A stretch of DNA of 64,000 nucleotides from Dictyostelium discoideum. Lineage: Eukaryota. A program made the translations under genes and the position numbers. Positions 8,113 through 28,624 of this stretch are shown piece after piece (position 1 is the first letter of the stretch; the number at the start of each line of letters is the position of its first letter). The notes beneath the pieces were generated by a model that had not been told where the DNA came from, made no database searches, and was given only the letters and a program-made list of their open reading frames with translations. The stretch is taken from contig CM000151.3 of the NCBI GenBank assembly GCA_000004695.1, positions 2,976,001 to 3,040,000 on the forward strand. Direction: 5' to 3'.

Positions 8113-9640
8113 TTACAATTGTTGTACGAAATTAGATGGGAAGAAACCTTGTTCACCTGTTGGTAAAGATCCCTATAAAAATAAAAATAAAAATAAAATT
8201 AGCTACTATTATTGACTAATTGATTGATTAATTAATCAATTAATTAATACTTACTTGCCACCAACCATCTGGATCACTTTGATCTAAAATTGTAATGATA
8301 TCACCTTCTCTGAAAGAAAGATCACCATCATTTTCACCATTATAATCGTAAAGTGCTTTAGCTTGAAGATAACCACTTTGATCGTATTGCTCTTCAGCTG
8401 GCTGTTCATATTGTTGTTGTTCTTCTTGATAATATTGTTGATCTTCAGTTGGTTGTTCGTATTGTTGTTGCTCTTCTTGATAATATTGTTGTTCTTCGGT
8501 TGGTTGTTCTTCATATTGTTGTTGTTCTTCTTGATAATATTGTTGTTCTTCAGTTGGTTGTTCTTCGTATTGTTGTTGTGGTTCTTCTTGATAATATTGT
8601 TGTTCTTCAGTTGGTTGCTCTTCATATTGTTGTTGTTGTTCTTCTTCATATTGTGGTTCTTCATATTGTGGTTCTTCATGAACTGGTTCTTGATAAACTG
8701 GTTGGACTGGTGCAGCTGGTTTATTTACACGTGATGGTACTGGAGCAGCTGGACGTGATGGAGCTGGTGGTTCTTGTTGTTGTTGAGTTGCAGCTGGGAA
8801 ACGATTTAAAACACTTCCTTTTGAAGGAGCAGGTCTTGGTTGTGGTGGAGCAGTTTCAGTTGGTTTTGAAACTTGTTCTTGGAATTTATTACCAACAGTA
8901 CGAGATGGTGGTGGAGCATTAACTCTTGATGCTTGTTGTTGCTGTTGTTGTTGTTGTTGTTTTTGTTTCTCTGCTTGTTGTTGTTTCCAATAGTCATCTC
9001 TTTCGGTGGATAAATTATATTCTGGACGAGTTGGTTTGGCTGGTTCAGATTTATTTGCTTGATTTTGTTTCCAATATTCTGCAGATTCTTGAATTTTGTT
9101 ATAATCGTTTTTGTTGATGACATTTTTAACCTCAGCATTTGATTTGGTTGCAGCTTCTCTACCTTGACTAACCGATTGTGGAATGAAGGTACCTTTGGTA
9201 GCACCTTGTACCTTTGAACCACTATCGTATGAGGCACCAGTTGCTTTGTTCAATGCAGCGGTGATTGCTTTCTCGTCGATATCTTCCTCTGAACGAGCGT
9301 TAACTTGATGATGAATTGGTTTGAAAGATTTTGAAAATTCGATTGCGTGTCCACTGAAAGCGCCTTTGATTGGTCCGTTTACACCATCACCACACCATGG
9401 AATGTATACAAACTTTGGCATATTATTAATAACAAAACGAATATAAGCAAAACGAATACTTGAATCATCTAATTCCTCTCTCAACTCTTTCAAATCACCT
9501 GATCCACTATCACAAAATTTAATTTTGTTATTTGATTTTGGTACATATGAAAAAACAATCCAACGATTTGCTGGATTACCATCTTGAACTAATTTAATAT
9601 ATTTTGTAATATCTGGATCACTAATATCTAATGATGCCAT
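8113..9640 (-). CDS. abpE: Abp1/drebrin-like actin-binding protein: N-terminal ADF-H domain, Pro/Gln-rich repeat linker, C-terminal SH3; 2 exons: 8266..9640 and 8113..8172
   Basis: ADF-H: IVFSYVPKSNN...RFAYIRFVINNMPKFVYIPWCGDGV; SH3: AKALYDYNGENDGDLSFREGDIITILDQSDPDGWWQ then gtaagt intron then GSLPTGEQGFFPSNFVQQL*; four tandem copies of QQYEEQPTEEQQYYQEE. Confidence 0.8.
8398..8660 (-). repeat. Coding tandem repeat (~57-60 bp x4) inside abpE giving (Q)QQYEEQPTEEQQYYQEE units
   Basis: Repeated DNA ttgttcttcttgataatattgttgttcttc(a/g)gttggttg...; repeated peptide in the ORF. Confidence 0.8.
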
Positions 9641-16271: not shown

Positions 16272-17729
16272 ATGGATAAAAAAATAAATTTAGATTATTT
16301 AATTGATGATATTATTGTAAATTCAGATGATTTAACACCATTTCAATGTCAAATTTGTTTTAATAGTGTCATTGATTTTAAAAAAGAAACCTTATCATTT
16401 GATGTTTTACAATGTAGAAATGGTCATATTTCTTGTCACGAATGGTATGTAGTAGTATTTTATTTTTTTATTTTTTTTTTAATAAGATAAAATAAAATAA
16501 AATAAAATAAAATAAAATAAAATTATTAATTATTAATTTTATTTTAAAGTTGGAATCGTCAATTATCAATTAAACAAGAATGTCCAAGTTGTAAAGTTAA
16601 AACTTTACCAAGTGAATTATCTCGTAATATATTTTTAGAGAATGCATTTCGTGCATTAAAAGTGATATGTCCAAATAAATTTAAAGAAAGTAAATTTCAA
16701 GGAGAGGCAGTTCATTGTGAGAATGGATGTCCAGAGATTTTAAAGGTAGAATTATTGGAGCATCATTTGAAAGAATGTCAATATCAATTTATAAAGTGTC
16801 CAAACAATTCAAACAAATGTAAATATATTATTAGAAAGAATCAAATTGAACATCACAATCAATCGGTATGCGATTACTCTTTGATTCAATGCGAGAAATG
16901 TTCAGAATTAATAGAGAGAAAGAAATTAAATAAACATATCGAGAGTGAATGTGACACTCTTATGATCACATGTAGTAAATGTTCAGCATCCATTGGTAAA
17001 AAATTAATGAATCATCATTTAGAAACCGATTGTCCAATGGAGGAGATTTCATGTCTCTACAAAGCAGGTGGTTGTAATAAAAGATTCCTTCGTTCACAAC
17101 TTTCTCAACATTTATCTGAAAATAATAATCATATCTTTTATATTCAAAATGTTATGGATTTACATAAACTTCAATTGGATGAATGTAATCAAGATTATAG
17201 AAAATTAGAAAAACAAAATAGAGATTTGGAAAAAAGATTATTTTATTTAGAGAGTACTGTAAATTCAACTGTAATAAATAGTAAACCACATGAATGTGGT
17301 GGTGGTGGTGGTGGTGGCAGTGGTAATAATGTTTATAAAGGGAAATGGGTAATCAATAATTGGGATCGTAAATTACGTGAATATCCAATATCAAAGAGTT
17401 TAAATAGTCCATTCTTTCAAATTGGTTCTTCTAAATTCTTTATCATGCTCTACCCAAATGGTAACAATGAGGTTAAAGGTTTTCTAAGTATTTTCCTCTA
17501 TAAAATTTATGATCGTCCATCACTTGTAAAATATAGTTTAGAAGCTAAAAATATTGACCCCACTAAAAATTATAAAAATACTCATACAAATAATTTCATC
17601 AATAACAATGGTAATGGTTGGTTCAAATGGATTGAAAATAAAAGTCAAAATGGTTTCTTTTCAAATAATTCTTTAACAATTAGTATTAGTATTAAAATTA
17701 TTCAAGATCATTCATTAGTTACTGAATAA
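16272..17729 (+). CDS. RING-finger / TRAF-type zinc-finger / coiled-coil / MATH-domain protein (TRAF-like), left copy; exons 16272..16444 and 16550..17729
   Basis: C3HC4 RING restored only after splicing (CQICFNSV...LQCRNGHISCHE|CWNRQLSIKQECPSCK; donor gtatgt at 16445, acceptor ag at 16548-49); repeated C-x-C-x-H-x-C TRAF zinc fingers; coiled coil LEKQNRDLEKRLFYLE; C-terminal MATH-like beta region. Confidence 0.75.
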
Positions 17730-18039
17730 TTTTGATAAAAATAAAATAATAAAAATTTATAAAAAAAAAAAAGAAATATAATTCAAATATTTAATTTAAT
17801 TAATAAATAATAATAGTTTTTTTTTTTTTTTTTTTTTTTAAAAAAAAAACAAAGTATTTTTTTAACCTTTTTTGGGAATGTTTTAACAAAACATTTAATT
17901 TAATATAATTTTAATAGAATAAACATTAATAATTAAAATAGATTATTTAATCTTATAACAATATATTTTAGTTGATCTTGTTACAAACATTGTCATTAAA
18001 GTTTATAAAAAAAAAGAAAAAAAATGCAACAAATATATA

Positions 18040-18160
18040 ATGCTTAATTATTGATCAAATTCTCCGTTTTCTATATATAAAATTGATAATGATGGAAATG
18101 GTTCATCAGTTGATGCTGCTATTGGAAATATTACTACTGGACAATTTTTATTATGTTAAA
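18040..18160 (-). pseudogene. Short degenerate fragment of the glycerol-dehydrogenase-like gene (5' part of its exon 3), left arm
   Basis: gatcaaattctccgttttc...aatggttcatcagttgatgctgctattggaaatattactactggaca ~85-90% identical to functional gene at 23871..23975. Confidence 0.6.
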
Positions 18161-18165
18161 TTACA

Positions 18166-18400
18166 TTATTTTGTGTCCTTTACAAGTGTTGGTGACATAT
18201 TATATCTGCGTATTAGTTTTGTTGTGAAGTATATGGGTTTTACAAACTTTTGTGATACTAAAACAGATTCATCAACTCTGTTCTCCTTTATATTATGTGT
18301 GTTTCCATTAATTGCTGCTATAGTGTTATGTATTAATTCTTCACCGCCACATTTATCCAATAAACTATTAGATTTTTGGAATTTGAAAAAAAAAAAAAAA
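18166..18400. repeat. Unknown ~250-bp element, copy 1 (left arm); diverged paralogue at 19396..19700
   Basis: Minus-strand conceptual peptide CGGEELIHNTIAAINGNTHNIKENRVDESVLVSQKFVKPIYFTTKLIRRYNMSPTLVKDTK vs copy 2 CGGEELIHNTIAAVNGNTHKIKENRVDASVLVSQKFVKLINFSSKLIRKYNMSPTLVDDTK (~85% nt identity); ORFs on both strands, none convincing. Confidence 0.5.
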
Positions 18401-18486
18401 AATAAATTTCTAAAAATTTAATGAGATTGACAATGTCGTAGTTTAAAAAAATATATAAAAAATTAAAAAGATTTTTGAATTGTTCA

Positions 18487-18539
<53 letters not shown>

Positions 18540-18859
18540 AATTTTCATAAATTGTTTATCTTTTTTTTAAGGTTAAAAAAAATAAGTAAACTTTTGTTTA
18601 TTTGGATACTTGTTTTTAATTTAGTTAAGTTTAGGTTTAAGTTTAATTTTATTTTAATTAATTTTTAATATTAATTTGATCATAATTAAAAAAAAAAAAT
18701 TCACAATAAAAAGAAATAATAAAAAAAAAAAAATATATAAAAATATAATAAATTATATATTATATAAAATGCCACCAAAAGTTTATGGTGGAAGAGTATA
18801 TGTATTAAATAATGGGTTTCACCAACTCATAATACTCAATGTACTCTCGTTATTGTTCT

Positions 18860-19080
18860 GAAAATGAATTGAAAATAAAAGTCAAAATGTTTTCTTTTTT
18901 AACAATTAGTATTAGTATTACTATTATTCAAGATCATTCATTAGTCACTCAATAATTTAGATAAAAATAAAATAATAAAATTTATAAATTCCAAAAAAAA
19001 AAAAATAAAAAAAAAAAAAAAGAAATACAACTCAAATATTTAATATAATTAATAAATAATAAATTTTTATTTATTTTTTT
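18860..19080 (+). pseudogene. Partial duplicate of the 3' end and 3' flank of the RING/TRAF/MATH gene (compare 17631..17830)
   Basis: attgaaaataaaagtcaaaatg(t/g)tttc...aacaattagtattagtatta...ttcaagatcattcattagt(c/t)act(c/g)aataatt...gataaaaataaaataataaaa aligns with the gene's last codons and downstream sequence. Confidence 0.6.
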
Positions 19081-19289
19081 TTAAAAAAGGAAAAAAAAAA
19101 TATTTAAGAACTAAAATTAAAAGAAATAACAGATAAAGTTTTTTTTTTTTAAACAATTCCAAATCCATTCAATTTTTTTTTTTTTTTTTTTTTGATATTA
19201 ATTTTATTACCAAAAAAAAAAAAAAAAATTTGATACCTTGCATGAAATTAAGCGAGCTCTATTTCTTTTGATTATAATTGATATAGAAT

Positions 19290-19332
<43 letters not shown>

Positions 19333-19395
19333 ATAATTTAATTTAATTATTCTCGTTTAAAAAATATTATTTGTAAGTAAATTTATTTATTTTAT

Positions 19396-19700
19396 TTATT
19401 CTCTGAAAATTTTATTTTTTGTGTCATCTACGAGTGTTGGTGACATATTATATTTGCGTATTAGTTTCGATGAGAAGTTTATGAGTTTTACAAACTTTTG
19501 TGATACTAAAACGGATGCGTCAACTCTATTTTCCTTTATTTTGTGTGTGTTTCCATTAACTGCTGCTATAGTGTTATGTATTAATTCTTCACCGCCACAC
19601 TCTTCCAATAAACTATTAGATTCATCAAGATATTCGTTCGTAAGTATAATTAATACGCTCAAGATGTTAATTGCCTGTCCATGTAATGTATTTTGGATTA
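19396..19700. repeat. Unknown ~250-bp element, copy 2 (left arm)
   Basis: See 18166..18400. Confidence 0.5.
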
Positions 19701-19974
19701 TATTTCTCGTTTGATGTTTTGATAACCTTTCTAGCAGTTGATACTTTCTTTAATACACCTGATATTGTTGTATGTATATATTATCTGTGTGTTGATTTTT
19801 GGAATAAATTGAAAAATTTTTATGTGGGGGAAAAAAGTTTTTTTTAATTTTTTTTTTTTTTTTTAATTTATTTATCAAGATAAATAATTAAATTCTAAAA
19901 ATAAATTTTTTGGTTATCCTTCAAGTTCAATGTTACACAATATCCAACAATCAATAATTAGTTTTTAAATTTTA

Positions 19975-20470
19975 TATCGATATTTATTTTTCCAATTTCT
20001 TTTAAAAGAATCCATGGCTTTTTCAATATTTTCACTTATGATTTTATAATATATTTTTGAAAGGTTATATCCAATCAATGATGGTTTTGTATTGGTTAAT
20101 TATTTCCAAAACTTTGAAAACATGGTCTCGCTTCAAAATAAGTTTAAAGTGCATTAGCCACTCCTGAAGAAAATTAACTTGGTGGCGCAGTAACCATAAC
20201 AACTGGATCAACTAAAACAACATCTGGATTTTTGGAATATAAAGATATTGATCAAATTCTCCATTTTCTTTATACCAAACTAATAATTATGCACATGATG
20301 CATCAGTCGAGGAAGCTTTAGGAAATATTACTACTGGACATTTTTACAATAAGGCAATTGCTTTAATTTAAAAATAATAAAAAAAAAAAAATAAAAAAAA
20401 AAAAAAAAATTTTAATTTCCTTTTGTAATATCAATTGTTTTAATACCAATTCCTAAATTTTTAATTTTAT
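19975..20470 (-). pseudogene. Degenerate partial copy of the glycerol-dehydrogenase-like gene (5' part of exon 3, intron 2, start of exon 2) with in-frame stops
   Basis: 19981..20345 aligns with 23631..23975; 20346..20470 aligns with 23976..24130; contains taa/tga in the gene frame (gaaaattaacttgg). Confidence 0.65.
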
Positions 20471-23156: not shown

Positions 23157-24505
23157 TTAAATTGGATAATTTGGTTTTAAATTTTCTATTGATATTTTTT
23201 TATATCTTTTACCCATTTCATTTGCAGCCACAATTGAATTAAAGATATCATCATTTTCAAAGTTTCTTAACATGTTTGACATTGTATCTGATGGTAAATT
23301 TGAAATTGAAGCCACTTTTTTAATATCTTCATCATTCCAATTTTTATAACCTAAATCCTCTAATGTCATCGGAAGTTTTGCAATTTTCATTATTCTAATT
23401 ACATTTTCAATTTCTCCAGTTGGAGCATCTTCTAAAATCAATTGAGCCAATAAACCAAATGCAACCTTTTCACCATGTTGAGAGGAATGTAATTGTTCTA
23501 TTGAACTTAGACCATTGGAAATTGCATGGGCAGCAGCAAGTCCTCCACTCTCTGCCCCAATACCACTTAAATAAATTGTTGCTTCTAAAATATTTTCAAA
23601 TGAAATTGAATTTGATTTACAATTTAAAGAATCCATTGCTTTTTCAATATTTTCACTTATGATTTTATAGCATAATTTTGAAAGGTTATATCCAATCAAT
23701 GATGGTTTTGTATTGGTTAAATTATTTCCAAAACTTTGGAAACATTGTCTTGCTTCAAAATAAGTTGCAAGTGCATCACCTACTCCTGAAGAAAATAATC
23801 TTGGTGGTGCAGTAACCATAACAACTGGATCAACTAAAACAACATCTGGATTATTTGGAATATAAAGATATTGATCAAATTCTCCATTATCTTTGTATAA
23901 AACTGCTAATGATGTACATGGTGCATCAGTTGATGCTGCTGTTGGAAATATTACTACTGGACATTTTTCATAAAATGCCATTGCTTTTTGTTATAAAAAT
24001 AATATAAATTAATTAATAATTAATTATTGATTTAAAAAAATAATAATAATAATAATAATAATAATTACCTTTTGCAGTATCAATTGTTTTACCACCACCA
24101 ATTCCTAAAATTACATTTGAACCTTTAGATTTTTTAATTGAACACATTCTTTCAACTTCATTTTTTGTACATTCAATTTTAAATTTTTCAACGTGAGATA
24201 TAATATTCTCTTTTTCTAAAGACTTTACAGTTTTTTGATTTACTTGATCAATTAATCTCTCATCACAAACAATAAAACATTTATTTCCAAAATCTTTAAT
24301 AAATTTTGAAGGATCATTTAATAAATTCTTTCCAATTATAAATTTTTTTGGTGAGCTAAAGTAAATTAATTAATTAAATAAAAAAAAATAATAATTAGTT
24401 TTTAAAATTATATTAAATATTATTAATAGAAATTATTTAATTTTTTTTTTATTTCTTTATTTTTTTTTATAAATATTACCAAAGAGTTTTATAAATTGTA
24501 TTCAT
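23157..24505 (-). CDS. Glycerol dehydrogenase (GldA-type, Fe/Zn-dependent ADH superfamily) homologue, left copy; exons 24480..24505, 24069..24355, 23157..23983 (379 aa)
   Basis: GIGGGKTIDTAKA, VIFPTAASTDAPCTSLAVLYKDNGEFDQYLYIPNNPDVVLVDPVVMVTAPPRLFSSGVGDALATYFEAR and SGIGAESGGLAAAHAISNGLS...HGEKVAFGLLAQLILE track E. coli GldA (GIGGGKTLDTAKA / [33 protein letters not shown] / GFESGGLAAAHAIHNG / HGEKVAFGTLVQLALE); donors gtaata and gtaatt. Confidence 0.8.
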
Positions 24506-24757
24506 TTTAATTGGTTTTGTTTTTTTTAAACAAACAATATATTAATTAAATAATTTATGATAAATAATAAATAATAAAAATAATTAAAAAAATAAAATAA
24601 TAAAAAATAAACAAAGTGGTTGTAGTGAAAAAGGATTTGGGAGTTGTGGTTATAATAAAAAAGATTTACATTTTTATTAGGAAAAAAAAAGTATAAAAAC
24701 AAAAACTATAATTACACTTCCTCACCTTTATTTTCATAATATTTTAATTAAAAGTAA

Positions 24758-24941: not shown

Positions 24942-28624
<3,683 letters not shown>

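Follow-up and report, generated by a model that had tools for sequence, protein, structure and literature searches.

Introduction

The laboratory strains AX3 and AX4 of Dictyostelium discoideum carry a 750-kb inverted duplication on chromosome 2 (PMC2643946, PMC11193728). The stretch analysed here, in the following called the window, comprises 64,000 nucleotides of AX4 chromosome 2 (assembly GCA_000004695.1, contig CM000151.3, positions 2,976,001 to 3,040,000); it is extremely AT-rich and spans the inversion point of this duplication. Between two convergent TRAF genes of the window lies a mosaic of repeats (about 17630-20470), made up of a copied gene end, two fragments of a GldA-like glycerol dehydrogenase gene and two copies of an element of about 250 bp that a preliminary description of the window had left without a match. 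This element is a pseudogene of a single-exon gene of about 124 amino acids, here called X, and the region as a whole is probably a non-functional fossil, left behind in the spacer of the TRAF genes after a number of rearrangements at the DNA level.

The mosaic can be compared with several described systems. It was copied along with the AX3/AX4 duplication but is not of its age: the latter is recent, dates from the laboratory era and has arms that are 99.98% identical, whereas the mosaic is an older, natural layer with identities of 77-89%. With the transposons of Dictyostelium (DIRS-1, TRE5/TRE3, DDT, thug, Tdd and Skipper) the likeness is restricted to one trait, namely that a module consisting of X and a second small open reading frame (ORF), Y, is found at differing loci in related species; in the features tested, the Y-X module differs from them by having no terminal repeats in excess of shuffle controls, no transposase, reverse transcriptase or integrase, and no tRNA gene as neighbour. 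The fragments of the GldA-like gene, referred to as patches A and B, are of the kind of non-processed pseudogene fragments, patch B having kept an intron. Finally, the mosaic is reminiscent of rearrangements ascribed to fork stalling and template switching (FoSTeS), to microhomology-mediated break-induced replication (MMBIR) or to filler DNA. The patches coincide with deletions and stem from a gene of the same strand at a distance of only a few kb, and the two resolved junctions show microhomologies of 4 nt. In contrast to that class, the mechanism would here have to be deduced from old, diverged junctions, and typical polymerase-theta insertions are smaller than the patches of the window (100-465 nt).

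X belongs to a small dictyostelid gene family

The minus-strand peptide quoted in the preliminary description does occur in both element copies, X1 and X2. It had been considered unrecognisable, but X turns out to be a pseudogenised member of a small dictyostelid family, which the annotations of several genomes list under hypothetical proteins. With the longer minus-strand ORF of X2 as query, only six proteins, all from Dictyostelium, were retrieved from among 5.8 billion. Two of the six are intact single-exon ORFs of 124 amino acids, one from D. firmibasis (P0003) and one from D. discoideum ACTFIW (P0002), and the scores of the orthologue search range from 6e-43 to 2e-21. A profile search against 1.84 billion representatives added the AX4 protein DDB_G0274271 (Q86J13, 115 amino acids), three proteins of D. 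purpureum (DICPUDRAFT_37434, _154329 and _159421) and two of Tieghemostelium lacteum (DLAC_00216 and DLAC_11506); paralogues from D. dimigraforme and D. cf. discoideum were added by a further search. All are dictyostelid proteins of 115-130 amino acids, with E-values of 1e-27 to 4e-5 for the profile matches P0007-P0013 and of 1e-6 to 1e-28 for the relatives of DDB_G0274271. A profile match to a protein of 2505 amino acids (P0010, in nine stretches) was disregarded as spurious, since it covered nothing but repeats of a TWTGNDDL-like motif.

X and the relatives of DDB_G0274271 have their single exon, their length of 115-130 amino acids and the motifs YI..W, CGGE.LIHNT and NMSP.LV.DTK in common. 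A tblastn search of the window with DDB_G0274271 gave identities of 48-49% (E=1e-15 to 8e-20). The copies in the window differ from the DDB_G0274271 family in being pseudogenes, and their true orthologues are not DDB_G0274271 but the 124-amino acid genes of D. firmibasis and D. discoideum ACTFIW, with 77-91% amino acid identity. In these searches the family is confined to dictyostelids, and the genomes in which several members were seen have roughly 1-3 genes each.

The reading frame of X is under coding constraint, as judged from the distribution of substitutions over the codon positions (third > first > second, for example 9/5/22 and 19/8/36) and from ratios of nonsynonymous to synonymous substitution rates (dN/dS) of 0.1-0.4. 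The strand antisense to X (window 19421-19714, plus strand) is likewise open, for 89-138 codons in several species (L001, the D. discoideum ACTFIW locus L002 and the D. cf. discoideum locus L004). The codon-position pattern favours the X frame over this antisense ORF, which probably arises merely as a consequence of the K/E-rich codons used in X.

An AlphaFold2 (AF2) model of X based on a nine-sequence alignment consists of four helices, with a predicted local distance difference test (pLDDT) score of 83; a first run with five close sequences had given an unusable model (pLDDT 49). For the confident model no known fold relative or informative structural neighbour was found, no Pfam model matched the family, and a literature search for DDB_G0274271 gave nothing. 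The possibility that X is a diverged C-terminal exon of the GldA-like gene was considered in view of the resemblance of EELIHNTIAA to DDIFNSIVAA and of LHGQ to QHGE. It was rejected: BLASTP against GldA gave E=2.5, and X had no Pfam match at E<=10, the iron-type alcohol dehydrogenase (Fe-ADH) model included.

Composition of the mosaic

All repeat relationships of the preliminary description were reproduced by self-BLAST, with E-values from 1e-32 to 1e-143. X1 (18158-18374) and X2 (19407-19622) are 89.4% identical over 217 nt (E=5e-78), and the 3' end of the TRAF/MATH gene (17625-17859) is 77.4% identical to 18862-19105 over 261 nt (E=5e-59). The smaller GldA-like piece, 18049-18151, matches exon 3 of the parent at 23869-23971 (88.4%, E=2e-32), and the larger one, 20002-20460, matches 23623-24112 with 82.4% identity over 490 nt and 88.9% in its core (E=1e-143). 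An older layer of duplication does exist, as had been proposed; its identity had been put at 85-90%, which is too high for the copy of the TRAF/MATH end (77%). By exact protein look-up, the flanking TRAF/MATH gene is DDB_G0273433/DDB_G0273509 and the GldA-like gene is DDB_G0273437/DDB_G0273503. The elements of the mosaic, its parent gene and its mirror image are as follows:

17625-17859, plus strand: genuine 3' end of the TRAF/MATH gene, last ~35 codons and 3' untranslated region (UTR), source of the copy at 18862-19105 (self-BLAST and look-up)
18049-18151, minus strand: GldA patch A, ~103 nt of exon 3 (codons ~112-146), 88% identical to the parent
18158-18374, minus strand: X1 pseudogene, codons 51-118 and garbled last codons, orthologue of the intact X-b of L002
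18371-18422, minus strand: remnant of the X promoter (about -88 to -34), joined to nt ~149 of the X ORF at AATC
18423-18811, no strand assigned: diverged shared intergenic (promoter) region of Y and X; 18406-18814 is ~65% identical to L002 9360-9696
18812-18865, plus strand: first 18 codons of ORF Y, left side of the tandem junction, 83% amino acid identity to Y of L002
18862-19105, plus strand: copy of the TRAF/MATH 3' end, last ~25 codons and 3' UTR, 77% identity, with an 11-nt internal deletion
19213-19398, minus strand: 3' flank of X2, collinear with the 3' flank of X in L004 and the flank of X-b in L002
19399-19816, minus strand: X2, full-length pseudogene (ORF 19765-19399) with ~50 nt of conserved upstream sequence, orthologue of X-a of L002
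19920-19948, minus strand: 29-nt remnant of the Y 3' flank, 27/29 identical to L002 8803-8831
20002-20470, minus strand: GldA patch B, last ~45 nt of exon 2, shortened intron 2 and first ~345 nt of exon 3
23157-24505, minus strand: parent of the patches, GldA-like iron-type alcohol/glycerol dehydrogenase, 3 exons, 379 amino acids (DDB_G0273437/DDB_G0273503)
59316-62161, no strand assigned: mirror image of the entire mosaic in the other arm of the inverted duplication, 100% identical (self-BLAST)

Some details of the preliminary description are modified by this list. The second element copy extends further than had been described, with ORF homology over 19399-19765 and upstream homology up to 19816. 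Both GldA-like pieces are pseudogene fragments, as had been recognised; the small one contains exon 3 only, the larger one the end of exon 2, intron 2 and exon 3. Each element copy had been said to abut such a piece, which is true of X1, in direct contact with patch A, but not of X2, which is ~240 nt away from patch B. The opposite order in the two units was correctly noted, the GldA-like pieces being situated on opposite sides of X1 and X2.

State and relationships of the X copies

Neither copy in the window is an intact ORF; X1 and X2 are both pseudogenes. In the nucleotide alignment, X2 (19765-19399) has its full length, but shows the change of ATG to ATA, a 3-nt deletion, the change of GAA to TAA and a 2-nt frameshift deletion. 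X1 (18374-18158) has lost its first 50 codons: a deletion of 180 nt took the 5' half together with the start codon and joined the promoter, at about -34, to nt ~149 of the ORF at AATC. Lesions are also found elsewhere, X-a of L002 being disabled by a different stop (TAG), X of L004 by loss of the start codon and X of D. citrinum by a 10-nt deletion near the 3' end, while X of D. firmibasis and X-b of L002 are both intact. Thus, five of the seven copies examined are disabled, and their lesions are independent.

X2 is 94.6% identical to X-a and X1 is 93.1% identical to X-b, as compared with 90.2% between X1 and X2. Since the cross-strain pairs are closer than the pair within the strain, the duplication of X predates the separation of the AX4 and ACTFIW lineages. 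The inactivation of X2 and X-a took place independently, after this separation. It could also be imagined that X was duplicated independently in AX4 and ACTFIW, that the apparent orthology was brought about by gene conversion and that the AX4 junction is a recent tandem duplication. The flanks of the X copies do differ between AX4 and L002, and a tandem duplication of the single-copy layout of L004 would be perfectly collinear with what is seen in AX4. However, the cross-strain identities (94.6% and 93.1%) exceed those within the strains (90.2% and 87.7%), and X2 and X-a have the same diagnostic substitutions in spite of their different lesions, which makes independent duplication very unlikely.

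The locus in other species

In D. cf. discoideum (L004), a single X is present between the convergent TRAF genes, and about 600 nt upstream, on the other strand, lies Y, a small conserved ORF with the motif DMSWLPxCLRRMHVVKLV. In D. discoideum ACTFIW (L002), TRAF408 is followed in turn by X-a, Y, X-b, a short TRAF 3' fragment and TRAF/MATH. Of the species compared, D. discoideum and D. cf. discoideum alone have X and Y between the TRAF genes. The orthologous spacer of D. citrinum, D. firmibasis and D. dimigraforme measures 270-600 bp and is devoid of X, Y and GldA-like pieces; between these empty sites (L006, L007 and L008) and the filled ones, the AT-rich intergenic DNA is unalignable between species, and alignments made to locate insertion boundaries or target-site duplications yielded low-complexity noise only.

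X orthologues are nevertheless present elsewhere in some of these genomes. In D. firmibasis X is located beside a RING-TRAF gene and a trehalase gene, on another chromosome, and in D. citrinum Y and X are located beside a REX4-like gene and a phosphodiesterase gene. The modules of D. citrinum and D. cf. discoideum have one contiguous block of 1.1 kb in common, and nothing outside it. In total, the X orthologues of four species fall into three neighbourhoods, in two of which Y is present as well. The neighbourhood of X differs in each of the three species groups, so that some relocation did occur.

These relocations raise the question whether the Y-X module is itself a mobile element that has escaped recognition, or is carried by one, the GldA-like and TRAF fragments being transduced flanking DNA. 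That the three neighbourhoods are unrelated is in line with such a view, and so is the restriction of the common block to 1.1 kb in D. citrinum and D. cf. discoideum, the genomes of which are otherwise extensively syntenic (PMC11193728). Against it, inverted and direct repeats at the ends of the module score 24-31, compared to a mean of 20-27.5 and a maximum of 32-40 in shuffle controls, and Pfam detects no transposase, reverse transcriptase or integrase domain in X, its antisense ORF or Y. The copy number is one or two per genome among the 5.8 billion proteins, the protein searches giving one locus per genome plus distant paralogues, and the distant members of the family are ordinary single genes under constraint. 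Y is lacking at the D. purpureum locus L009, the only distant-paralogue locus tested, and the paralogue locus of D. cf. discoideum, L010, has no annotated Y-like neighbour. An element of the TRE type is further disfavoured by the absence of tRNA genes from the 64-kb window. A mobile element is therefore an unlikely explanation. The preliminary description had offered a scrambled tandem duplication or a transduction by a mobile element; the former is borne out as a local tandem layer, and for the latter none of the transposon hallmarks looked for was present. The outcome named there as speaking against its view, one locus only and a clean match to a gene, is essentially what the protein-level searches gave.

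A related idea is that Y and X form a self-contained cassette that moves between spacers without classical transposon features and decays fast after arrival. The three neighbourhoods, the disablement of five of seven copies, the lineage-restricted family and a fold without known relative are all compatible with it. If true, Y and X would behave as is expected of a selfish pair of genes, for example of a toxin-antidote-like kind, or of the cargo of an undescribed mobile element, but we consider this very improbable.

Several other differences between the species were observed at this locus. TRAF408 is missing between the TRAF/MATH and Fe-ADH genes of D. dimigraforme (L008, 11595-11960), and in D. 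firmibasis TRAF408 and Fe-ADH are merged in one gene model of 742 amino acids. At the position of Fe-ADH and adaptin in D. discoideum, D. cf. discoideum carries two additional genes (774 and 820 amino acids; L004 1868-6973), although its GldA-like gene is on the same contig as L004. The fragment of the TRAF/MATH 3' end in L002 (10554-10675) is a second, shorter one directly beside the genuine gene end, and the window may hold a very degenerate trace of it at ~18039-17965. There are hints of repeated rounds of small duplication at the end of the TRAF/MATH gene.

Tandem duplication and GldA patches

The single-copy arrangement of L004 provides the key to the AX4 layout. From X through the 3' flank of X to the 3' end of TRAF/MATH, the window (19816-18862) runs parallel to L004 9915-10778; the homology then restarts at the beginning of Y (L004 9349-9394, window 18855-18810) and runs via the promoter into X1. 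With this collinearity and restart, the AX4 layout corresponds to the one expected from a head-to-tail duplication of ~1.4 kb. At base level, the start of Y reads to ...TGTTCTGAAAAT, ending at 18865, and the TRAF/MATH copy opens with AAATGAATTG at 18862, the overlap of the two being the 4-nt microhomology AAAT (18862-18865). In this manner, codon 18 of Y is fused to the last TRAF/MATH codons; the Y fragment of AX4 (18812-18865) now has a stop.

Upstream of X2, the Y ORF and the promoter are deleted; the 29-nt remnant of the Y 3' flank (19948-19920) remains, and patch B is situated ~55 nt further upstream. Patch A starts in an A-rich stretch at the stop codon of X1 and replaces ~310 nt that are present in L002. 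The patches are thus found outside the duplicated unit, which explains their position on opposite sides of the two X copies. Their location outside this unit and at deletion sites is also an argument against their having been transduced by a mobile element.

Patch B contains stops and frameshifts. It also retains intron 2, in shortened form, from which it follows that the patches were made as DNA copies and that the GldA-like pieces are not processed pseudogenes, in which introns are absent. Patches A and B have only one derived substitution in common, and both hold the ancestral base, as in L002 and three outgroup species, at positions where the AX4 parent changed later. They are absent from L002 and L004 and were seen only in AX4-like assemblies. 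The patches are roughly as old as the separation of AX4 and ACTFIW.

The same layout is present in an independent D. discoideum assembly (L005) with 99.7% identity, and there the automated ACTFIT annotation contains a gene model, ACTFIT_003014 (P0006, 118 amino acids), built from patch B, X2, X1 and patch A. The model spans L005 10001-12227, which corresponds to window ~20200-18040 on the minus strand. Taken at face value, it would make the mosaic a young chimeric gene, or else a non-coding RNA, spliced from four minus-strand pieces, and all four pieces do have one orientation. Nevertheless, such a product would require ad hoc splicing around stops, each piece has independent disabling lesions, the arrangement is absent from the ACTFIW lineage of D. 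discoideum and from the other species, and no Rfam match was found. We regard this explanation as very improbable and ACTFIT_003014 as almost certainly an annotation artefact built on pseudogene pieces.

A model for the origin of the region

The repeats, the family membership of X, the lesions, the empty sites and the junction sequences are directly observed, and from them we infer an order of events and a repair mechanism for the fossil region. In a first step, the common ancestor of D. discoideum and D. cf. discoideum would have acquired, between its TRAF genes, a module of ~1.1 kb containing the divergently oriented Y (~60-95 amino acids) and X (~124 amino acids, DDB_G0274271-like). X would then have been duplicated, ahead of the separation of the AX4 and ACTFIW lineages, and a head-to-tail duplication of ~1.4 kb would have extended from codon 18 of Y via X to the last 25 codons of TRAF/MATH. 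Subsequent events in the AX4 lineage would comprise the 180-nt deletion, flanked by microhomology, that beheaded X1, the loss of the Y gene and the promoter upstream of X2, and the DNA copying of two GldA-like pieces, from a source 3.2-5.7 kb away, into or beside the deletion sites. In the course of this step X2 would have gained its start-codon loss, stop and frameshift. Finally, the inverted duplication in the laboratory strains AX3/AX4 doubled the whole region. The patches themselves may have originated from template switching of the MMBIR/FoSTeS or filler-DNA type, either during replication or in the repair of a break.

Some observations weigh against this reconstruction. The ends of patch A can be placed only to within ~30 nt, because the sequence there is A-rich. 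Both patches differ from their parent by 11-18%, which corresponds to about the age of the AX4/ACTFIW separation or more, so that patch B might have been lost in L002. Furthermore, L002 keeps a complete Y between its X copies, and its TRAF 3' fragment is located beside the genuine gene and not between these copies. Both layouts thus go beyond one simple duplication, and extra lineage-specific events or gene conversion are needed. A single duplication giving rise to both the AX4 and the L002 layout was considered and set aside, as neither simple model fits both.

Position within the giant inverted duplication

Most of the window is taken up by a giant inverted repeat with arms at 15786-39703 and 64000-40083 and a spacer of 379 bp at 39704-40082. 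The arms are 99.98% identical, with five mismatches, one at 24691 and a cluster at 26060, 26062, 26063 and 26071; the cluster falls within the AP-2 alpha-adaptin gene. The spacer is not AT-rich and resembles coding sequence; its length probably equals that of the gap between the two duplicated intervals in dictyBase. By self-BLAST, the mosaic region is mirrored at 62386-59086 with 100% identity. That the older layer predates the giant duplication, as the preliminary description had supposed, is confirmed by its identical presence in both arms and by the shared layout of L005.

Two further local direct repeats of similar age are present in the window, 27731-27930 versus 30606-30808 (90%) and 8387-8625 versus 8438-8679 (88%), the former pair being mirrored in the other arm as well. 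In addition, the orthologous TRAF/GldA/adaptin locus is found ~5-40 kb from a contig or chromosome end in four independent assemblies: at 2.958-2.980 of 2.984 Mb in L007 (D. firmibasis CM069770.1), 11-32 kb from the contig start in L006 (D. citrinum), at 600-620 of 627 kb in L004 and at 3.03-3.05 of 3.09 Mb in L002. Chromosomes 4 and 6 of D. firmibasis are split with respect to D. discoideum chromosome 2 where the AX4 duplication lies (PMC11193728). The position near contig ends in four assemblies and this split together suggest that the TRAF/GldA/adaptin region is naturally fragile or subterminal.

Conclusions

The mosaic is a well-resolved case of known genome history and not a new kind of element. 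The practical value of the analysis is modest and lies in the explanation of an odd-looking stretch of a reference genome. Two X pseudogenes and two GldA fragments, for which the searched collections hold no AX4 protein entry, have been identified, and the chimeric gene model ACTFIT_003014 has been flagged. The only mildly surprising point is that the X family, as yet uncharacterised, has relocated between species that are closely related. The region furthermore provides a dated, base-level case of microhomology-associated duplication, deletion and templated patching in an intergenic spacer of Dictyostelium, and it indicates that this part of chromosome 2 was being rearranged naturally long before the laboratory duplication.

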